NCBI GenBank assembly: GCA_026387175.1
Contig: JAPLME010000008.1
Coordinates: forward strand, 149,883 to 213,882
Length of the DNA: 64,000 bases
Reading direction: 5' to 3'
Source of the DNA: Candidatus Omnitrophota bacterium
Lineage (GTDB): Bacteria > Omnitrophota > Gorgyraeia > 2-01-FULL-45-10
Shown: piece by piece, positions 19,482 through 62,374 of the stretch
Layout of the letters: each line of letters starts with the position of its first letter
Numbering within the stretch: position 1 is the stretch's first letter
Position numbers and translations under genes: made by a program
The notes under the pieces: model-generated
Databases searched by the model: none
Told to the model about the DNA's origin: nothing
Seen by the model: only the letters and a program-made list of their open reading frames with translations

Positions 19482-19558
19482 CGGGGCGTAGCGCAGCTGG
19501 CTAGCGCGCTTGGTTCGGGACCAAGAGGTCGGCGGTTCAAATCCGCCCGCCCCGACCA
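19482..19558 (+). tRNA. tRNA-Pro (anticodon CGG)
   Basis: Cloverleaf folds. Acceptor CGGGGCG/CGCCCCG, D-arm GCGC-AGCTGGCTA-GCGC, anticodon stem CTTGG/CCAAG with loop TTCGGGA, T-arm GGCGG-TTCAAAT-CCGCC, and encoded CCA. Confidence 0.9.
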
Positions 19559-27561: not shown

Positions 27562-27948
27562 ATGAGTTCGCAAAGGATGGGAAGAGTGCAGGAGGCTATA
27601 CGGCAGGAGGTCAGCAAAATCCTGCATGATGAGATAAGGGACCCGAGGCTTGGGTTCTTGACGATAACTGGAGTCGAGCTCACGAAGGATCTCAGGTATG
27701 CGCGTATATATTTCAGCGTCCTGGGTGAGGATAAGGACAAGAAGCTCGCCCTTAAAGGCCTGAATAGCGCTAAGGGGTATATTAAGGGGCTGCTCGGCGA
27801 CAGGGTGAAGTTGAGATATATGCCTGAAATAGAATTTAAGATAGACGAGACGCTCGAGAGAACGCAGCGCATATATGAACTCTTCGATAAGATAAAGAAG
27901 GAGAAAAAAGATGATGCAGGAAGTGATAGAGGCGATAAAGAAACATAA
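27562..27948 (+). CDS. rbfA: ribosome-binding factor A
   Basis: RVQEAIRQEVSKIL...DPRLGFLTITGVELTKDLRYARIYFSV. Confidence 0.85.
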   Translation: MSSQRMGRVQEAIRQEVSKILHDEIRDPRLGFLTITGVELTKDLRYARIYFSVLGEDKDKKLALKGLNSAKGYIKGLLGDRVKLRYMPEIEFKIDETLERTQRIYELFDKIKKEKKDDAGSDRGDKET

Positions 27949-28879
27949 GAAATTTCTCATCAGCGCCCATATAAACCCGGAAGGCGATTCCCTCTGCAGT
28001 CAGCTCGCTATGAAGGAGCTCCTGATAGCCATAGGCAAGGAAGCCGCGATAGTTAATAATGATCCTGTGCCGGAGCACTACAAATTTCTGCCGGGAATAG
28101 ACAAACTTTCGACGGATTTGACTAAAAAGGTGGATTTCGACGCGGTCCTGATCCTGGATTGTCCGACCCTGAAAAGGGTGGGCAGCGTAGCCGGCATTAT
28201 AGGTAAGGGCAAAACCATAATAAACATAGATCATCATATTTCGAGTGAGAGATTCGGCGATGTAAACTGGGTCGATGCCAATGCCAGCTCCACGGGTGAG
28301 ATGGTATATAAGCTCTTTAAAGAGATGAGCGTGCCTCTAACTAAAGGTATCGCGCTCTCGATATATATAGCTATTCTGACGGATACAGGTTCATTTAACT
28401 ACGATAACACATCCGCCATAACACATGAGATAGCGGGCGATCTTTTAGGATATGGCCTTGAGCCCGGGTCAGTTTCTGAAAGCGTCTATGAGCGCAGGAC
28501 CCTGACCGATATAAAACTCCTCGGCCTTGTTCTGTCGACTCTGAAGGTCAATGAAACCGGTGAGGTAGCGTACCTCGAGATAACGCGAAAGATGGTTTCT
28601 GAAACGGGCGCCGATGTAACCAAGAGCGAAGGGTTTATCAACTATGCCCGTTCCATAGAGGGCATTAAAGTGGCGGTGCTATTTAAAGAGGACTTAAAGG
28701 ATAAGAATAAGATAAATATCAGCTTTCGCTCCAAAGGAAGGGCCGATGTCAACAGGATCGCGTCATCTTTCGGCGGCGGAGGACATGTGAAAGCTTCCGG
28801 TTGTATCCTCGAAGGCACCCTCGCCGATATCGAAGCCAAAGTCATCGCTAAGGTCGAAGAATCGCTAAAGCGCAGATAA
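27911..28879 (+). CDS. nrnA: DHH/DHHA1 phosphoesterase (NrnA-type oligoribonuclease/pAp phosphatase)
   Basis: DHH motif IINIDHH and DHHA1 GGGGHVKASG. Confidence 0.75.
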   Translation: MMQEVIEAIKKHKKFLISAHINPEGDSLCSQLAMKELLIAIGKEAAIVNNDPVPEHYKFLPGIDKLSTDLTKKVDFDAVLILDCPTLKRVGSVAGIIGKGKTIINIDHHISSERFGDVNWVDANASSTGEMVYKLFKEMSVPLTKGIALSIYIAILTDTGSFNYDNTSAITHEIAGDLLGYGLEPGSVSESVYERRTLTDIKLLGLVLSTLKVNETGEVAYLEITRKMVSETGADVTKSEGFINYARSIEGIKVAVLFKEDLKDKNKINISFRSKGRADVNRIASSFGGGGHVKASGCILEGTLADIEAKVIAKVEESLKRR

Positions 28880-32330: not shown

Positions 32331-34558
32331 TGGTAAAAAAGAGCGCGGAAAAAGATACTAAGGGGACGAAGGAAAAGGTTAAGAAGCCCGCCACGAAGAA
32401 GAAGCTTGCAGCTAAAGCCAAGGCGTCCGCAGCCGCATCCATCGAGAAAAAGAAGCCCGTGGCTAAGACGCCTGCGGTCGTGCCTGCCGCGAAGAAGAGG
32501 GTTGTCCATCCAAAAACGGCGATTAAAAACGACAATGTGATAGCGAAAGAGGCCGAAGCCGCAGTAGCGGTAAGCGTGAAACCAAAACCCATTTCGAAGC
32601 CGGAGATAAAGAAAGAAGAGAAGGCTTATGTTAAAACGGAAATAAGCGCGGCACCGCCTCAGGCCCAAAAGCCTGAAGCCCTCAAGGTAGCTGAGAAATC
32701 GCAGGAGATCAAGGCCGGCCCATCTTCAGTTAAGGAGACGGTTGTTGAAAAAACGGCAGCTGTGGTGCCCGAAGTCCGTGAAGCGAAAGTATTGGAATTC
32801 GACCTGCCTATACCGCTAAAAGATTTTGCCGTAAAATTGGGCGTGAAACCTAATGAGATAATACTGGATCTGATGGGCAAAAATATATTTGCTACGATAA
32901 ATCAGAGTTTAGGCGAAGAGCTTGTTGTAAACCTGTTAAAGGCGAGAGGCATAGAGTTCAGGAAACCCCCTAAGATAGAAGAGCAGGTTTCAAAAGAACA
33001 TACCGAAATGGAGTCAAAGCAGGACGTGCGCCATATTACCGCAAGGCCTCCGGTCGTTACATTCATGGGGCACGTTGACCATGGAAAGACAAGCCTTCTA
33101 GATTTCATCCGGAAGACCCGTGTTGCGGACAAGGAGAAGGGCGGCATTACGCAGCATATAGGCGCATATGAAGTGCGGTTGAAGAACGGCTCGGTCACAT
33201 TCCTGGACACTCCCGGCCACGAGGCTTTTACGGCGATGAGAGCGCGGGGGGCCAATGCGACTGATATCGTAGTCCTTGTGGTTGCCGCTGACGATGGTGT
33301 TATGCCTCAGACCAAAGAGGCCCTGGACCACGCCAGGGCGGCCAGTGTCACGATAGTGGTCGCGCTTAATAAGTGTGATCTTCCTTCGGCAAATATCGAT
33401 AAAGTCAAAGGTCAGCTAAGCCAGATCGGGCTTAGCCCGGAGGATTGGGGCGGGAAGACTATAGTGCTGCCGGTATCGGCCAAGACCGGGGAGGGAGTGG
33501 ACGAACTGCTCGAGATGCTGCTCTTAGAAGCGGAGCTTCTGGAATTGAAAGCTAATCCCGAGCTCAGGGCAAGAGGCGTTGTTATAGAAGGGAAACTCTC
33601 CAGCGCTCAAGGGCCGGTCGCGACGGTGCTTGTGAAGAACGGAACTCTCCGGCTAGGGGACATGATACTCACAGGTATGCATTACGGCCGCGTTAAGGCG
33701 ATGATGGACCATACGGGAACCCGTGTAAAAGCGGCTCCGCCGTCAAAGCCCGTTACGATACTTGGATTATCCGGCGTTCCGATGGCCGGAGATGAGTTCT
33801 TCGTAGTGAGGGACGAAAAGAAGGCGAGGATCCTTTCGACTCTGAAGCAGGATGAGGCCAGGAGCCATAAACTGAAGATGTCGCATCGTGTTACGCTCGA
33901 GGACTTTTATTCGAAGATGAAAGAGGGAGTGGCAAAAGAACTGGATATACTTCTTAAGGGTGATGTGCAGGGGTCCGTCGAGGCGCTGAAGGCTTCGCTC
34001 TTAGAGTTAAACACCAAAGATGTTAAAGTCACGATCATCCATGCTGACGTCGGGAATGTCACCGAGTCGGACGTGATGCTTGCTGTGGCGTCAAACGCTA
34101 TCATCATGGGATTCAACGTGAAGATCGATGAAGGCGCGGCGGATCTGGCGGTGAAAGAAGATATAGAGATAAAGAGCTACAATATAATATACGAAGCGAT
34201 AGAGGACGTAAGGGCCGCTATGGAAGGGCTGCTTGCGCCTGTAGAGAAAGAGATATTTGTAGGAAGAGCTATTGTTAAACAGCCCTTCAGGGTAACGAAG
34301 GTCGGCACCATAGCGGGCAGCCAGGTCGTGAGAGGTAAGATCGTCCGCGCAGGCATTGCCAAGCTCATCCGCGATAAACAGGTTGTGTATGAGGGCAAGA
34401 TCTCCTCTCTTAAGAGGTTTAAGGATGACGTGCGCGAAGTCAACGAAGGCGTTGAGTGCGGAATAGGGCTGTCCGGACATGACGATATAAGAACCGGCGA
34501 CCTTATAGAGATCTACCAGATCGAGAAGATCGCCCGCAGACTAGACGCTAGAAGGTAA
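32330..34558 (+). CDS. infB: translation initiation factor IF-2
   Basis: Lys/Ala-rich N-terminus and G domain [12 protein letters not shown] / DTPGHEAF / NKCD. Confidence 0.9.
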
Positions 34559-55734: not shown

Positions 55735-56321
55735 ACCTTCCTAATAAGTTGACGATGATGAGGATAGTGCTTGCGTTTATATTCATAATATTCTTATTTA
55801 CGCCGGGGTTGACCGCCAAGATATTAGCGCTCGCGGCGTTTCTTTTGGCTTCCGGCACGGATCTCCTCGACGGGTATCTAGCGAAAAAGAATAACCAGAT
55901 AACAGATTTTGGCCGACTGATGGATCCGATAGCCGATAAGATACTGATACTATCCGCATTCCTTGCTTTCGTGCAGATGCAGCTCGTACCTGCCTGGATG
56001 GTGGTAATCATAATATTCAGAGAGATCGCTGTCAGCGGCTTAAGGGCCCTGGCTATGGCCAAAGGTAAAGTGATAGCAGCAGACCGGGGCGGGAAACACA
56101 AGACAGCCTGCCAGGTCTTCGCTATATTCGTCATACTGCTTTTGATAATATTCAGGGAAGCGCCGTCGGCGTCTTTAAGTTTCTGGTCCAAAAGCGCGGA
56201 GAACATTTATAAGGACGCGATATTCGCGCTGATGCTTATTACGGTGACATTGACGCTGATAAGCGGCGTATCATATCTTTTGAAAAACAGGGAGGTCTAC
56301 TCAAATGCGAAAGAAAGTTGA
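55731..56321 (+). CDS. pgsA: CDP-diacylglycerol--glycerol-3-phosphate 3-phosphatidyltransferase
   Basis: CDP-alcohol phosphatidyltransferase motif DGYLAKK...G..DPIADK. Confidence 0.8.
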   Translation: MNLPNKLTMMRIVLAFIFIIFLFTPGLTAKILALAAFLLASGTDLLDGYLAKKNNQITDFGRLMDPIADKILILSAFLAFVQMQLVPAWMVVIIIFREIAVSGLRALAMAKGKVIAADRGGKHKTACQVFAIFVILLLIIFREAPSASLSFWSKSAENIYKDAIFALMLITVTLTLISGVSYLLKNREVYSNAKES

Positions 56322-56757
56322 GCTCATAACGAGTTTCTTCTATCTCGGCCATTCACCGTTCATGCCGGGCACGATGGGTTCGCTTGGCGGACTCATAGTA
56401 TATTTTCTTGTGCGTAATAATGATATCTTATATGCCTTTTCAATCCTATTCTTATTTACGCTCGGAGTCCTATTCGCCGGCGAGGCGGAAAAAGTATATA
56501 AGAGGAAGGACCCGTCAATGATAGTTATAGATGAGGCATGCGGAATGCTTCTGGCGTTATTCTTAGTGCCGTTTAATCTATATTCCGTTATTCTTGGATT
56601 CTTCATCTTTCGTATATTTGACATATTGAAGCCGCCGCCTGCCAGAAGGATTGAGAAGCTGGCAGGTTCTCTCGGAATAATGTTTGATGATATAATAGCC
56701 GCGCTATATACCAACATAATCCTACAGATAGTCTTCAGAAATTTCAGCATGAATTAA
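56305..56757 (+). CDS. pgpA: phosphatidylglycerophosphatase A
   Basis: 150 aa with the PgpA-like IFDILKPPP motif. Confidence 0.7.
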   Translation: MRKKVELITSFFYLGHSPFMPGTMGSLGGLIVYFLVRNNDILYAFSILFLFTLGVLFAGEAEKVYKRKDPSMIVIDEACGMLLALFLVPFNLYSVILGFFIFRIFDILKPPPARRIEKLAGSLGIMFDDIIAALYTNIILQIVFRNFSMN

Positions 56758-56820
56758 GGAATAAAAAAGTAAGATATTTGATATTGCTAATATCATAAGC
56801 TATGGTATACTCATTTTACT

Positions 56821-59800
56821 ATGTTTGTTAAAAGAACAAAAATAATATCGGCGTTTCTTGTAGTGGCATTTTTTGTCCAGGATTTATCATGGGCATATCC
56901 GGACCATTTTGCCTATGACCGCCCTTCCAATAATAAATTGGCGCCGGCGCCTTTCAGCGAAAGAGTATCTCCTGAAGACATAACGAAATCTCTCATCTTA
57001 GTAATAGAGCAAAATCACCATGTTTCAATAAAGAGCCTTGTGCTTGATGGTGTAGAAGCCATACTGAATGAATATCAGGAATTCCTGAAGCAAAATAGCA
57101 TAAGTTTTTTAAAAAAGCCCAGAGAAATTAGAATAAATATTAATCCAAATATTATTTTGCGCTATACCGATCATGCCATGCCGCTAGATGGTATATCTGG
57201 CTTCAAGGTCGGATCTCAAGAAAAGACAGGGGCTCTTGTAAGGCAGATTTTAATAAGAATTGAAAAGAGACCCACGCTACGTTCAAGGCAGCTTCAGCTT
57301 GATTTTGGATCGCCCGCAAAAGAAACCGTCGCAGAAGGAGAAAAAACGGCAGAAACTCCTGTAGCCCCTGCAACGCAGGGAGAAATTAAGAATAAACCCC
57401 GTGTATCTATTATGCTGTTTCAGGATATCGCAAGACTGGATTCAAAGATAACGAATGCCGTTATATCGTCTATGAATATGCTGGAAGATAGAATGCACCG
57501 CTCGCGTGTGGTTATGGGGGCAATAGATGTTTTACGGGATGATATTATCGGATATGGCCATGTCAGGGCCGATGCCTTTGAACGGTTTTCGAAAAAAGTA
57601 TCAGGTGTTTTGGACAGATGGATAATGAGCGATAAAGGGAAGGAGACAATCCGCGGCAGACTGGCCAAAATAAGCCTCAAGATAAACGAGAGGGACGATT
57701 TATTGAAAGGCATAGATATATCCTATTATGGTTTGGCAAGAGAGCTGAAAGGCGAAAAAGGCGCGCAGCAAATTATATTCCTGCTGCTTAGTATAGAGGC
57801 GGGGCTTAGGGAAGTGGCGGAAGCGATGGATGAGCACAGCAGGCTGAAATCGAGATTTAATGTAATTGCGGCTGACTTGAAAGCGATTCGTAAGTGGATG
57901 AGCATAAGAGGCGAACGCCCAGGAAAGGATTTAACAAGTTGCGAAAAGGCGTTGAAAGCGATGGCGAAACATGCGCCTCTCCAGCTTCATGATCAAATTT
58001 TGAATTTAACGGATAAAATAGCAGTTTTAAAGCCATTCGTAGAAAGTGTATGGGAAGTTAAGCCGCCTGCCGGATCGGTACCCGGCGTATTTAAATATTT
58101 ATGCTCGCCAGATATCCAATCGTTTGAAAGACCTCCTCGCGCCGATGAGGTTGCCGATAACCTCGGTCGGTCGTATGATACGATAAGGCGCGATCTGTGG
58201 GACCTCTATTACCATCTTCATCTTCTCGATAAGGTAGACGTTAGGGAATCGGGCAGGGATGCTCGCTATTATGTCCCCGAACGCGTTAAGAATAAGTATG
58301 ATGACATATACCCGATCCTGAACCAGTTCATCGGTAAAAAACTCCGTCCCACAATAAAAGATCTCGAAAGCGCATATAGGGCTATTATCAATCTTATAGG
58401 TGTCCGCGATCCAACCACAGGCAAATTCAATTTGGTCTCTATATCAAAACGCACTGATTACAAAGGCAGATTTAATATTAATATCTTCGGCGATGGAAAA
58501 ATCCAGTTTAATATCGGTACCGGCTATTCGTTAAAAAATATTGAGCTCATCCCGTTAACCGATAACTGGCGGGAAGGCTTTGAAGTCTACCATCAGAGTA
58601 ATCTGATAGGTACGTGCGATCCATCCACCGGCGAATTTAGCCCGATTCAAGAGGTCCGGAAACCGGGCGAAGACCGCCGGTTCAATCTGGACAGAGTTCG
58701 CTATATTCTCCTCGATGCAGGCTACGCTAGCGGTGGTGCGAATAGGGAAATCAGGATCATTGCCTTTGACGGTTTCGACTGGACTAGCGGTTTTAAGGTC
58801 TATCATCTGGACAGAGAAATTGCCTCTTATGATAAAAAGCGCAATGTTATGATCGGCATGTCTGTCGCCGGAAGATTGAGACCACCAGGCGCGCGGGCTA
58901 GGGTGCTGCTACAAATGCAAATTCCGAATAAAGACACCAATAAAAACGGAAGGGCGTTTACAGCTGAAATAAGTAATTTTATAATTAAACATCGGTCGAT
59001 TCTTGGCACGAGAGAAAAAGATATAGAGACTATCCTTGACGAAGTAGGTCTTAATATCATGGAGCATGGCAATGGCGGCGAGATAATGGTAGAAACTGAA
59101 AAATCTGCGGATGGCAGATTACGATTAAAGATAATCGGGAAAGATAAAGGGAGCGGTCTTCCGGCCTCGCCGGACGAGCTTGTAAAAACTAGCCTTGCCT
59201 CGCGGAAACGCTTTGAACGCGAACCTGATGCAGATGATAAAGACATTATGGTGAGAGGGCGGGGGTTTTCGAGAATAGCACTCGGTCCTGACAGTGTAAC
59301 TATTGAATATCAGGGGAAGAGGTTTGTCAGGTTTACGGATAATAAGGATGCCGGCTCGTGGTTTCGTGAAGAAAACGTCGCAGGCAGTAGCGCAAAGGGT
59401 ACAAATTTTGAGCTTAAATTTGAGTTGGGACGCGAACTCACCTCATGGGGGCCTGAAGCGGAGACGCTTGCTGATATACATGATCTGTTTAACATTAAAA
59501 TTCCATCTCGAACAAATGATAATACAAAAATATTATTATCCGAAAATCTGTTTATAAAAAATAGTAATGAGACAGAGCTGATTCAGGTCAGGATAGCGCT
59601 CGCGTCGCTCCTCAATAGCGGAAATATTGCAATTATGAAACCGGATGAGATGAGAAGGGCCGCGATGAATCGGCATGTCTCAAAGGACAAACTTGCGACA
59701 GTTTTTACCGAAGAAGATTTCAATAATAAAGGGATATGGAATGGTTGTGACAAAGAAGCATCGCTCAGGTCAAGTGTCCTGATACTTGGTGACAGGCTAA

Positions 59801-60069
59801 TGGGCAATAATTATCTGTATCTGGAAGGCGTTATAGGTCTTGCACGGGCGATGATGGTGAATAACAAGTATGCGGTTAGAAAATACTATGATTTGATATC
59901 GGGTACTGTTATAGATAATGAGATGATGAAATTATTAAATGAGGATGATCAAAATAATCTTTCTTTCGCTATCAGGGCCGTACTAAGATTTAAGCCCATA
60001 ACCAGGACCGATCCGGAAGACTTGAATGAGCTAAAGATCAGGATGGAGAAGTTCTTAATCGCCGCTTAA
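56821..60069 (+). CDS. large hypothetical membrane-anchored protein (1082 aa) with a GHKL/HATPase_c-like ATP-binding motif; AT-richer than its surroundings
   Basis: N-terminal hydrophobic anchor IISAFLVVAFFV. Around residues 735-790 it has an N-box-like NIMEHGNGGEIMVE and G1-box-like IIGKDKGSGL. No overall family recognised. Its own promoter is TGGTATACT (extended -10) at ~56806. Confidence 0.6.
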   Translation: MFVKRTKIISAFLVVAFFVQDLSWAYPDHFAYDRPSNNKLAPAPFSERVSPEDITKSLILVIEQNHHVSIKSLVLDGVEAILNEYQEFLKQNSISFLKKPREIRININPNIILRYTDHAMPLDGISGFKVGSQEKTGALVRQILIRIEKRPTLRSRQLQLDFGSPAKETVAEGEKTAETPVAPATQGEIKNKPRVSIMLFQDIARLDSKITNAVISSMNMLEDRMHRSRVVMGAIDVLRDDIIGYGHVRADAFERFSKKVSGVLDRWIMSDKGKETIRGRLAKISLKINERDDLLKGIDISYYGLARELKGEKGAQQIIFLLLSIEAGLREVAEAMDEHSRLKSRFNVIAADLKAIRKWMSIRGERPGKDLTSCEKALKAMAKHAPLQLHDQILNLTDKIAVLKPFVESVWEVKPPAGSVPGVFKYLCSPDIQSFERPPRADEVADNLGRSYDTIRRDLWDLYYHLHLLDKVDVRESGRDARYYVPERVKNKYDDIYPILNQFIGKKLRPTIKDLESAYRAIINLIGVRDPTTGKFNLVSISKRTDYKGRFNINIFGDGKIQFNIGTGYSLKNIELIPLTDNWREGFEVYHQSNLIGTCDPSTGEFSPIQEVRKPGEDRRFNLDRVRYILLDAGYASGGANREIRIIAFDGFDWTSGFKVYHLDREIASYDKKRNVMIGMSVAGRLRPPGARARVLLQMQIPNKDTNKNGRAFTAEISNFIIKHRSILGTREKDIETILDEVGLNIMEHGNGGEIMVETEKSADGRLRLKIIGKDKGSGLPASPDELVKTSLASRKRFEREPDADDKDIMVRGRGFSRIALGPDSVTIEYQGKRFVRFTDNKDAGSWFREENVAGSSAKGTNFELKFELGRELTSWGPEAETLADIHDLFNIKIPSRTNDNTKILLSENLFIKNSNETELIQVRIALASLLNSGNIAIMKPDEMRRAAMNRHVSKDKLATVFTEEDFNNKGIWNGCDKEASLRSSVLILGDRLMGNNYLYLEGVIGLARAMMVNNKYAVRKYYDLISGTVIDNEMMKLLNEDDQNNLSFAIRAVLRFKPITRTDPEDLNELKIRMEKFLIAA

Positions 60070-60123
60070 ACACAGGTTACCGATCTGCTGGTATTTTCAT
60101 ATCGAAATGGTATAATATTCAGC

Positions 60124-61356
60124 ATGAGAGCTGAAATTATTTCCATTGGCACCGAGTTACTGCTCGGGCATATCCTCAATACTAATGCCGCATACCTTTC
60201 CAGAAAGCTCGCCGAGCTGGGCATTGATCTCTATTATCAGACGACTGTAGGTGATAATCCTGAGCGGCTTATCCAGACCATTAGAAAAGCTATCGCAAGA
60301 AGCGATATCGTAATACTCACCGGCGGGCTCGGTCCGACCATAGACGATGTTACGATGGAGTCTGTCGCACGATTGACAGATAGGCCTCTTGTTCTAAATA
60401 AGATCGTATTAAAAGATATCGAGAGGTATTTTAAGGCGCGAGGTTTTAAACCACCTTCTGGTAATGATAGGCAAGCGAGAGTTCCGCAAGGAGCAAAGTG
60501 CCTGCATAACAAGTTCGGAACGGCTCCAGCGCTTATAGTAGAACATTTGGGTAAGGTTATAGTATGCCTGCCCGGGCCCCCGAGAGAGATGGAACCACTC
60601 TTTGAAGATGGGGTGACGCAGTATTTTAGAAAGAAGTTCAGATCCGAAGAGATAATCAGGACCAGGACCATAAAGACCATCGGCCTTCCGGAGTCGCGGG
60701 TCAATGCAATCGTTAAGGATTTGTTGAAGTTGCCTCCGCCTACAACGGTGGGAATTTACGCGAAGCTTCGGGAGGTGCATTTAGTGGTTATGGCGAAGGC
60801 CGAAAGCGATGCGCGCGCTCGGAAAGCTATTGCTGCGGTGGAAAAGAAGATCTTGTCCCGCCTGAAGAATTGTATATTCGGATACGATGATGATACGCTA
60901 GAAAGCATCGTGATTAAGAGCCTTATAGAGAAGAAGCTCACGATTTCCGTAGCGGAGTCCTGCACCGGCGGGCTTCTCTCGAAGCGCTTTACCGATATAA
61001 GCGGCAGTTCCGGTTGTTTCGTGGCCGGCATCGTTTCGTATTCAAATGAGTCAAAGGAAAAATTACTGGGATTGCCTAAAGAATTGATAAATAAATACGG
61101 AGCTGTATCAGGACAGGTTTGCGGGCGAATGGCTTTCGGAGTAAGGCATATTGTCCGTACGGACATAGGAGTCGGTATTACAGGTATAGCGGGTCCAACG
61201 GGCGGATCCTTGCGCAAACCGGTCGGACTGGTGTATATCTCTTTGGCGACAAATGAGAAGCTTATCGTTAAAGAGTTCAGATTCAATGGCTCGCGCCAGG
61301 ATATCAGATGGCAGGCTTCGCAGGCTGCCCTGGACATGATAAGGCTCAACATTTAG
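60124..61356 (+). CDS. cinA: competence/damage-inducible protein CinA (MocF-like N-terminal domain + CinA C-terminal domain)
   Basis: MRAEIISIGTELLLGHILNTNAAYL start and C-terminal AESCTGGLL. Own extended -10 TGGTATAAT at ~60098. Confidence 0.85.
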   Translation: MRAEIISIGTELLLGHILNTNAAYLSRKLAELGIDLYYQTTVGDNPERLIQTIRKAIARSDIVILTGGLGPTIDDVTMESVARLTDRPLVLNKIVLKDIERYFKARGFKPPSGNDRQARVPQGAKCLHNKFGTAPALIVEHLGKVIVCLPGPPREMEPLFEDGVTQYFRKKFRSEEIIRTRTIKTIGLPESRVNAIVKDLLKLPPPTTVGIYAKLREVHLVVMAKAESDARARKAIAAVEKKILSRLKNCIFGYDDDTLESIVIKSLIEKKLTISVAESCTGGLLSKRFTDISGSSGCFVAGIVSYSNESKEKLLGLPKELINKYGAVSGQVCGRMAFGVRHIVRTDIGVGITGIAGPTGGSLRKPVGLVYISLATNEKLIVKEFRFNGSRQDIRWQASQAALDMIRLNI

Positions 61357-61930: not shown

Positions 61931-62220
61931 GTGAAAATATTCCTGGTGGATATATCTGATGGCGGAACTTTCGGCTCGATGCTGGAATAATTGCAGTCAT
62001 TTTACGGGTGACGCAAGATCCAGCCTTGAGGGGCGCAGCGTAGGATGGGTTCAATATAGCTACCCGCCTGGATGGACTGATATTGTAAACCCTACGCAAG
62101 CACCGAAAGGCGATCTTGCGGCAGGACCCGTAAAATGATGCTGTTCAGCGGAAGCATTGACCGAAAGTAAACGCCGGACTGAAGATTCCGATATAATATT
62201 TTCGCCGTAGTGAGGAACTA
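61931..62220 (+). repeat. Y-type structured repeat, copy Y5 (variant with nested hairpins)
   Basis: Outer TIR GGTGAAAATATTCC pairs with AATATTTTCGCC. Nested TIR GGCGGAACTTTCGGCTC pairs with GACCGAAAGTAAACGCC. Inner hairpins TCATTTTACGGGT...ACCCGTAAAATGA, CGCAAGATC...GATCTTGCG and GCGTAGGATGGGTT...AACCCTACGC. 3' tail GTAGTGAGGA. Confidence 0.55.
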
Positions 62221-62374
62221 TTTTAAAATAATGTGCAACAATTTTGGCCATTTCAGCGTCTTATATAGGGAGGGAAAATTAACTTTACAGAAAGGAGGTA
62301 GTGACTGTATAATAAATCCCTGCGTATAGTATAGTTATATCTATATAATATATAGAAAACCTAAGGAGAATAAG

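Follow-up and report, generated by a model that had tools for sequence, protein, structure and literature searches.

A vertically inherited gene between pgpA and cinA in an Omnitrophota genome encodes the shortest known slot member of a candidate family of modular proteins with constant ends

We analysed a 64,000-nucleotide stretch of DNA from a Candidatus Omnitrophota bacterium (contig JAPLME010000008.1; hereafter the window), in which a single long open reading frame (ORF) for a protein of 1082 amino acids lies between pgpA and cinA. The gene has no assigned function and is compositionally deviant, as the original prediction made from the sequence had stated, and that prediction took it for a horizontally acquired insertion. 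The reading that we consider probable, though well short of certain, is instead that of a resident, fast-evolving gene in a fixed slot, belonging to a protein family in which two constant terminal domains ('bookends') enclose exchangeable cargo that they would help to target, anchor or assemble. The slot is made up as follows.

56305..56757, forward strand: pgpA, the upstream neighbour that marks the slot (Pfam PgpA, 9e-42)
56821..60069, forward strand: coding sequence of the 1082-residue 'bookended' modular protein, an intact ORF (locus tag NTY76_05320 in the NCBI metagenome-assembled genome, hypothetical protein, Candidatus Omnitrophica)
60124..61356, forward strand: cinA, the downstream neighbour (Pfam)

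ORF calling and Pfam matches agreed with the predicted position of the gene and with the neighbours named for it. Upstream lie FtsK, an HTH_25 (RodZ-like) protein, a radical-SAM MiaB/MtaB-like protein, PgsA (CDP-OH_P_transf) and PgpA, and downstream CinA, LigT, RecA and RecX, with alaS past the end of the window. The claim that the gene is richer in A and T than its flanks proved true but moderate, the G+C (GC) content being 0.435 compared with 0.485 for the remaining window. Its GC content at third codon positions (GC3), likewise 0.435, is the minimum among the 57 ORFs of the window (mean 0.568, standard deviation 0.046; about −2.9 standard deviations). Along the gene the GC content is uneven, at 0.36-0.40 at both termini and 0.44-0.47 centrally, and the overall dip is modest. 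Because pgpA itself is low in GC, this dip begins upstream of the 1082-residue gene; pgpA leans towards AT in the window (GC 0.415, GC3 0.483) and is low too in L001, L004 and L085, three of the loci listed below. A local dip to 0.42 also falls in the gap between ligT and recA (61931-62374), which is non-coding and unusually long at 444 nucleotides; the gap at the equivalent position of L001 measures about 225 nucleotides.

A recent horizontal acquisition of an AT-rich gene with a defence or stand-alone signalling function would fit the extreme GC3, the promoter-like element that precedes the gene and the small number of homologues returned by a word-indexed search. One of the three homologues from that search, P0003, is encoded on a contig with the same gene order, and further loci were obtained by fetching cinA loci from reference genomes and contigs encoding other relatives. 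A homologue was found directly 3' of pgpA in 7 independent Omnitrophota loci, with lengths from 1082 to 6932 amino acids.

Window: the gene studied here, 1082 amino acids, the shortest of the seven
L001: P0003, 1736 amino acids (L001:909-6119), in the order pgpA, big gene, cinA, ligT, recA, recX, alaS
L004 (Ca. Omnitrophica AM5_bin-0158): P0022, 2041 amino acids
L088: P0013, 2778 amino acids
L086: P0012, 4047 amino acids
L085 (GCA_030648075.1, Ca. Omnitrophota): P0019, 4872 amino acids
L087: P0068, 6932 amino acids, followed by cinA-ligT-recA-recX-alaS

Wherever the contig extends, the slot gene sits 5' of cinA-ligT-recA-recX-alaS. Compared with the window, the six other syntenic loci encode PgpA proteins that are 70-95% identical and RecA proteins that are 82-95% identical, and their flanking proteins overall are 57-95% identical. 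In L009 and L013, from more distant Omnitrophota in which CinA is about 50% identical, pgpA abuts ligT and the slot is empty. Between the window and L001, the number of synonymous substitutions per synonymous site (dS) was 0.64 for the first 296 codons of the gene, with 0.62 for pgpA and 0.58 for recA, and was higher, at 1.31, for the region encoding residues 414-688. The ratio of nonsynonymous to synonymous substitution rates (dN/dS) in the same comparison was 0.20-0.37 for the slot gene versus 0.04-0.18 for the flanking genes. Given that dS of its 5' part equals that of the flanks while dN/dS is higher, the gene has been inherited together with its flanks yet evolves faster than they do. GC3 of the slot gene is below that of neighbouring genes in all 4 syntenic loci measured, and the region between pgpA and the slot gene, including the promoter-like element, is conserved between the window and L001. 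The gene borders carry no boundary repeats beyond short chance repeats, no tRNA gene lies within 37 kb (the sole tRNA gene of the window is at 19482), no integrase or transposase gene adjoins the housekeeping neighbours, and no family of the PADLOC-DB defence models matched at an expectation value (E) of 1 or below. Taken together, these results show that the gene is intact, maintained by purifying selection and vertically inherited with its flanks, and its low GC3 and high dN/dS would be due to weak selection on codons and a fast-evolving locus rather than to foreign origin. The synteny comparison proposed with the original prediction thus found orthologues at the same position in related genomes, an outcome named beforehand as speaking against an insertion; the gene is better described as resident in its slot, and we regard its recent horizontal acquisition as hardly credible.

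Further genes occur at individual loci. At L088, a gene for 2400 amino acids (L088:8964-16166) begins 11 nucleotides after the slot gene P0013; it has Sigma70_r2/r4 matches and one copy of the winged-helix-like module described below, with neither the leader nor either of the terminal domains, and may be split-off cargo of the slot gene or a partner to it. L087 holds an ORF6N-domain gene between ligT and recA and a GIY-YIG gene after alaS (27826-28368 and 32558-32833), both of which are small insertions into an otherwise conserved block.

The promoter-like elements ahead of the slot gene and of cinA were also present, as had been predicted, although the position of about 60098 first given for the cinA element was some 10 nucleotides off.

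56803..56811, forward strand: extended −10 promoter-like element TGGTATACT, 9 nucleotides 5' of the ATG of the 1082-residue gene, with no Shine-Dalgarno (SD) sequence
60108..60116, forward strand: extended −10 promoter-like element TGGTATAAT, 7 nucleotides 5' of the cinA ATG (60124), with no SD sequence

When both strands of the 64-kb window were scanned, TGGTATA[AC]T occurred just twice, at these sites. An SD-like motif precedes 24 of 56 ORFs of the window and is missing ahead of both genes. TGGTATACT is conserved in L001, and its counterpart in L085 is GGTGGTATACTCAT. Since the elements lie only 7-9 nucleotides from the start codons and no SD sequence is present, the 1082-residue gene and cinA appear to be transcribed from putative extended −10 promoters as leaderless or near-leaderless mRNAs.

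An exhaustive HMMER search of 1.84 billion protein representatives yielded 178 relatives of the protein, compared with just 3 from the word-indexed search; a word-indexed search with the profile of the C-terminal domain (CTD) returned short fragments only. No second family member was found in the 64-kb window. The modules of the query were then mapped onto the best 150 of the 178 relatives.

CTD (query residues 880-1082): in 95 proteins, always at the extreme C-terminus
N-terminal module (query residues 1-160): in 51 proteins, always at the extreme N-terminus
Winged-helix-like module (query residues 414-525): in 34 proteins, internal in giants and frequently in 2-3 copies
GHKL-like module (query residues 696-875): in 25 proteins, internal in giants and frequently in multiple copies

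About 45 complete proteins, of 757-6932 amino acids, carry both ends. The cargo between them, as surveyed in 26 complete members, includes HATPase_c, HATPase_c_2, PAS, GGDEF, Sigma70_r2/r4, methyltransferases, NTP_transferase, cytidylate kinase and PEP-utilizers, among others. The query itself has the leader motifs, the N-terminal domain (N-domain) at its N-terminus and the CTD at its extreme C-terminus, and lies directly 3' of pgpA; its E-values with the family hidden Markov models (HMMs), 3e-61 for the N-terminal model and 9e-76 for the CTD model, follow partly by construction because these models contain the query. As far as sequence comparison can tell, this distribution shows a family with constant ends and a middle whose predicted cargo is exchanged wholesale, of which the query is the shortest known slot version. 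The family is apparently undescribed and restricted to Omnitrophota. Where relatives carry a source name, it is Ca. Omnitrophica or Omnitrophota. The bookend domains, the leader motifs and the locus between pgpA and cinA are unmentioned in the open-access texts on Omnitrophota giant proteins (10.1101/2023.11.21.568195, 10.64898/2026.06.07.730766, PMC10066038), and a search of the open-access literature for the motifs AWAYPD, LLSENLF and NYLYLEG found no relevant paper.

From the N- to the C-terminus, the 1082-residue protein is organised as follows, where pLDDT is the predicted local distance difference test score of the structure models.

56821..56895, forward strand: N-terminal leader, residues 1-25, with a basic tail (MFVKRTK), a 12-residue hydrophobic core and QDLSWA, the A-x-A-like SWA standing before YPD
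56878..56904, forward strand: family signature QD(I/V)xWAYP(D/E) from the family alignment, here QDLSWAYPD, residues 20-28
56935..56955, forward strand: KLAPxSF motif, here KLAPAPF, residues 39-45, with L40 invariant and A41 and P42 nearly invariant; flexible linker at residues 26-44 (pLDDT 56-72)
56953..57258, forward strand: N-domain core, residues 45-146, helices and a five-stranded antiparallel sheet with invariant R114-Y115 (LRY; consensus LRYFDP)
57259..57417, forward strand: low-complexity, probably flexible linker, residues 147-199 (pLDDT about 60 over residues 147-165), poorly conserved in P0002 and P0003
57418..58059, forward strand: region with no recognised domain, residues 200-413, guessed to be helical from its sequence, present in 7 relatives as well, with part of it missing from the L001 orthologue
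58060..58395, forward strand: winged-helix-like (wHTH) module, residues 414-525, core RSYDTIRRDL at residues 450-459, with helix-turn-helix (HTH) matches in family copies
58408..58863, forward strand: two tandem beta-barrel units of about 80 residues, residues 530-612 and 600-681, of the IstA/transposase C-terminal barrel type, defined by jackhmmer
58906..59445, forward strand: divergent GHKL (HATPase_c/HATPase_c_2-like) ATP-binding module, residues 696-875, from motifs and family profile
59050-59079, forward strand: N-box LNIMEHGNGG, residues 744-753, with E741 and N745 (LDEVGLNIMEHG)
59140-59160, forward strand: G1 motif KDKGSGL, residues 774-780, with D775, G777 and G779
59254-59268, forward strand: G2 motif RGRGF, residues 812-816, with invariant G815, shorter than the canonical GxxGxG
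59395-59421, forward strand: terminal motif KGTNFELKF, residues 859-867 (GTxFxLxF)
59458..60066, forward strand: CTD, residues 880-1082, four-stranded alpha/beta with helices, signatures ILLSENLF and NYLYLEG and the terminus ...FLIAA-COOH

The two bookends were modelled with AlphaFold2. The N-terminal model reached a pLDDT of 84.7, with more than 93 for the N-domain core, and contains a helix over residues 3-25; the CTD model reached a pLDDT of 84.5 and a predicted template modelling score of 0.86. Neither domain has a structural relative in the Protein Data Bank (PDB). In the family, the leader consists of a basic tail, a core of about 12 residues that is typically (I/V)R(I/V)I(S/A)xxL(I/V)xxF, and QD(I/V)xWA(Y/H)P(D/E), with KLAPxSF about 10 residues further on, and in none of the fetched loci does this leader motif occur on any gene but the slot gene. 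The CTD relatives end in ...ME..L(I/V)(A/S)A-COOH (95 proteins), here FLIAA (residues 1078-1082, 60052-60066). This ...LIAA end resembles the LAA-COOH of the ssrA degradation tag, which is recognised by ClpX, and by analogy the tail of the CTD could be a degron or recognition tag. The L001 protein P0003, the closest slot orthologue, ends in another domain, its last residues (...IPPAKPMSYEDL...) resembling the end of P0004 (...IPPAMPEDF...), and these termini may represent a second type of C-terminal bookend. P0004 (L003:10001-15454), a leaderless protein of 1817 amino acids whose gene lies, in a genome of low GC content, between guaB and dnaE, has the GHKL-like module alone in common with the family. 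HMM comparison of the P0003 and P0004 C-termini with the CTD was not significant (1-3 bits), and they were rejected as distant CTD homologues.

Whole-protein searches gave nothing usable in NCBIfam, PADLOC or the PDB sequences, and in Pfam two marginal matches. Marginal matches to EF-hand_8 and SurE were treated as noise. The identity of the cargo was sought in profiles of homologous copies. The N-box and G1 pair noted in the original prediction belongs to a genuine GHKL module, in which a G2-like motif and a terminal motif were found as well. E741 and N745 are invariant across 16 aligned diverse copies of the module, as are G779 and G815, and D775 and G777 are conserved in at least 90% of them. 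A profile of the module (A1) matched the PDB histidine kinase 7z8n_A at E=1.3e-6, and also 9p6i, VraS, ZraS and AdeS, with the alignment running from the N-box to G2. Among the homologous copies, 10 of 16 matched HATPase_c (best 3.2e-7) and 5 of 16 HATPase_c_2. For the query alone HATPase_c_2 was the best Pfam family, but its score of 13.1-17.7 bits stayed below the cut-off of 27.4, with E=0.1 when the whole protein was searched and E=0.004 when the segment was. The domain is, to judge from these alignments, a genuine but divergent ATP-binding domain of the GHKL/HATPase_c type with its ATP-binding residues intact. A MORC-type ATPase was rejected, the sole match to such a family (Morc6_S5, E=0.09) covering 20 residues of the barrel region upstream of the GHKL module.

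That the best PDB matches are catalytic domains of histidine kinases raises the possibility of a classical two-component sensor histidine kinase, whether intact or degenerated so far that its DHp domain is no longer recognisable. Its N-terminal helix and domain of about 120 residues resemble the layout of a first transmembrane (TM) helix plus sensor, and the slot orthologues P0003 and the L004 protein hold canonical HATPase_c modules. However, neither the whole protein nor its segments matched HisKA, HisKA_3 or DHp, an H-box, HAMP or a receiver at E≤1-5, as the original prediction had anticipated for HisKA/DHp and receiver domains. The second TM helix of sensor kinases is missing too, and no response regulator was found among the window neighbours. 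Moreover, the best Pfam family is of the SpoIIAB/RsbW type, and what precedes the ATP-binding domain is not a dimerisation hairpin but some 500 residues including the wHTH and beta-barrel modules. We consider a sensor kinase highly unlikely.

The module also resembles the GHKL anti-sigma-factor Ser kinases SpoIIAB and RsbW, likewise stand-alone Bergerat-fold modules of about 150-180 residues with N-box, G1 and G2 (the latter short in the query) and no DHp, whose family, HATPase_c_2, is its best one in Pfam. Sigma-70 regions 2 and 4 (Sigma70_r2/r4) occur in cis in family paralogs, and a sigma70-containing gene stands beside the L088 slot gene. By contrast, the query scores below threshold, no STAS/anti-anti-sigma or sigma gene lies near the 1082-residue gene in the window, and its module is embedded behind a signal-like leader. 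Because of the missing DHp and the resemblance to HATPase_c_2, a His-Asp phosphorelay is less likely than an ATP-dependent switch or a Ser/Thr-type kinase, and in our proposed mechanism the module would act in one of these two ways upon a partner protein, as SpoIIAB and RsbW do. Of the signalling, kinase or defence functions suggested earlier, a non-canonical kinase or ATP-switch role is thus reasonable on sequence grounds, while the absence of PADLOC matches speaks against defence.

For the wHTH module, the query alone gave HTH_DeoR at E=0.04. Six of 19 homologous copies matched HTH_11 (best 8e-5) and others matched other HTH families, and the profile had weak matches to wHTH regulators in the PDB (2d1h, E=0.017). 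The profile of the barrel unit (A7) matched residues 303-360 of the IS5376 IstA transposase at E=3.6e-4 (8b4h). Like IS21-family IstA (PDB 8b4h, 8q4d), the query has a beta-barrel to which a unit of about 75 residues aligns. Unlike IstA, it has neither a DDE catalytic domain nor IstB, and the barrel is tandemly duplicated in a non-transposase protein. Some relatives carry 3-5 tandem copies of the unit (P0090, 1063 amino acids, up to 5; P0097; P0008), and this amplification suggests that the unit serves as an array of binding repeats and is not left over from a transposase. Together, the wHTH module and the barrels may supply nucleic-acid or protein binding.

Being shorter than the six other slot genes (1082 versus 1736-6932 amino acids), with dN/dS above that of its flanks and weak codon bias, the gene might be a shrinking, functionless remnant of a multi-thousand-residue slot ancestor. 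However, the frame is open for 3249 nucleotides at 43% GC, and dN/dS stays well below 1. The ATP-binding residues of the GHKL module and the family-invariant residues of the bookends are intact, and the promoter element is conserved. The same barrel-GHKL-CTD arrangement recurs in P0005 with 62% identity, and P0012, like P0005, ends in GHKL and CTD. A remnant is accordingly a very poor explanation of the gene.

The N-terminal hydrophobic segment pointed out in the original prediction is present at residues 8-19, with no other TM-like segment in the 1082 residues. Calling the protein membrane-anchored is an interpretation, for the segment fits a cleavable Sec signal peptide equally well. In 49 members, the flank N-terminal to the leader core contains 155 K+R versus 12 D+E, and the C-terminal flank 41 K+R versus 101 D+E. 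An A/S-W-A motif stands at the position of a signal-peptidase site, ahead of the conserved YP(D/E). From this charge asymmetry, read by the positive-inside rule, and the anatomy of the sequence, we infer a Sec signal peptide or type-II anchor with an N-in/C-out orientation. In our proposal, the leader would engage the Sec/signal recognition particle pathway and set this orientation, and the bookends would be the constant handling parts, for targeting, anchoring or assembly, of the exchangeable cargo. Within this explanation, export falls slightly short of an even chance; the protein would then work on the cell surface, or on or inside a target cell, which is how the long proteins of Omnitrophota are currently interpreted. 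Tethering at the cytoplasmic face is the somewhat less probable placement.

A membrane-tethered cytoplasmic regulator has also to be weighed, in which an uncleaved, monotopic or peripheral helix would hold an entirely cytoplasmic body, the wHTH module and barrels would bind DNA, the GHKL module would be an anti-sigma-like kinase or switch, and the bookends would assemble or localise the protein. Every recognisable cargo of the family is of a cytoplasmic type, wHTH modules are common, no secretion genes were seen nearby, and at about 12 residues the leader core is on the short side for spanning a membrane. Larger paralogs mostly carry a two-helix hairpin after the N-domain, placing the N-domain and the cargo on one side, and the flanks of these hairpins are slightly rich in K/R (78 versus 48 before, 82 versus 60 after; 39 versus 45 in the loops), a weak statistic that is biased by how the segments were delimited. 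By contrast, the strong conserved charge asymmetry of the leader places the body outside by the positive-inside rule, the A/S-W-A motif sits where a signal peptidase would cut, and the query lacks a second TM helix to return the chain to the cytoplasm. On balance we regard such a regulator as possible but unlikely.

The bookends might otherwise form an export and delivery platform, in which dedicated processing or secretion machinery would read the leader, KLAPxSF, the N-domain and the CTD with its ...LIAA end, and cargo of cytoplasmic type (GHKL kinases, sigma-like and HTH modules, methyltransferases, nucleotidyltransferases) would be delivered into or onto host or prey, making the locus an arms-race hotspot for Omnitrophota that live as predators or parasites. 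MARTX and TpsA/CdiA proteins have a conserved N-terminal targeting region (in MARTX also a C-terminal one) around interchangeable enzymatic cargo. By analogy, they would share with the present family constant ends, highly variable length and rapid turnover of cargo, and the family would be a functional analogue of MARTX/TpsA effectors built from unrelated parts, with the 1082-residue protein as its minimal member. Unlike them, the query shows no detected sequence or fold similarity and has no partner transporter gene nearby, its cargo is of signalling or metabolic type and not recognisably toxic, and delivery into cells would be hypothetical. We hold this delivery platform to be doubtful, more so than the tethered regulator.

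Several points weigh against the reading that we prefer, that of a resident slot gene with bookends handling exchangeable cargo. The function given to the bookends is itself inferred. The N-in/C-out call is based on charge statistics and sequence anatomy. Recognisable cargo throughout the family would need ATP, S-adenosylmethionine, GTP, RNA polymerase or DNA, and being of this cytoplasmic type it disfavours export unless it works within a different cell. Genes for secretion or processing adjoin the slot or family genes in none of the contexts seen. Neither constant feature is absolute, given that the L001 orthologue P0003 has the leader, N-domain, wHTH module and barrels without the CTD, and that the gene of P0006, also a member of the family, lies at an unrelated locus. 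Most relatives come from metagenome contigs with no assigned taxonomy. Finally, since the GHKL (17.7 versus 27.4 bits) and HTH (HTH_DeoR E=0.04) segments of the query lie under the Pfam thresholds, their identity rests on transitivity at the level of the family.

The long and giant multi-domain proteins of Omnitrophota are the closest known kind. A predatory or parasitic way of life has been proposed for Omnitrophota (Seymour et al. 2023, PMC10066038), and their long proteins carry signal peptides or TM segments together with HATPase_c, methyltransferase and GNAT modules (10.64898/2026.06.07.730766; West-Roberts et al. 2023, 10.1101/2023.11.21.568195). The conflict between an N-terminal signal and cytoplasmic cargo has been discussed for those of at least 10,000 amino acids (10.64898/2026.06.07.730766) and by West-Roberts et al. 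(10.1101/2023.11.21.568195). The present family shares with these giants the phylum, an N-terminal signal peptide or TM segment, 'cytoplasmic' cargo, fast evolution, poor conservation and this topology paradox. By contrast, the giants were catalogued at 10,000 amino acids or more (or as ORFs above 20 kb), compared with 0.75-6.9 thousand residues for this family and 1.08 thousand for the query. They have many TM helices, SecA-DEAD domains and adjacent pilus or secretion genes, none of which were found for the 1082-residue gene. The bookends, the leader motifs and the locus between the housekeeping genes pgpA and cinA are features of this family and go unmentioned in the open-access texts on the giants.

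The locus also carries a general caution, in that low GC3 and few database matches need not mean horizontal transfer, and profile HMMs can recover members that a word-based search misses (178 versus 3). Both end domains are apparently previously undescribed, as far as open-access texts show. Omnitrophota are ultra-small and thought to be mostly predatory or parasitic, and their giant proteins are poorly understood and too large to express. Here a tractable protein of about one thousand residues is tied to relatives of up to 7 thousand by two end domains, a leader motif and a fixed slot, providing a minimal model for how such proteins are targeted and handled and a defined locus at which to follow the turnover of cargo across strains. 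A role of the bookends as a delivery platform, if it holds, would make the family a new principle of secretion or effector action, whereas a role as assembly modules in the cytoplasm would explain how diverse enzymatic cargo is organised at the membrane.

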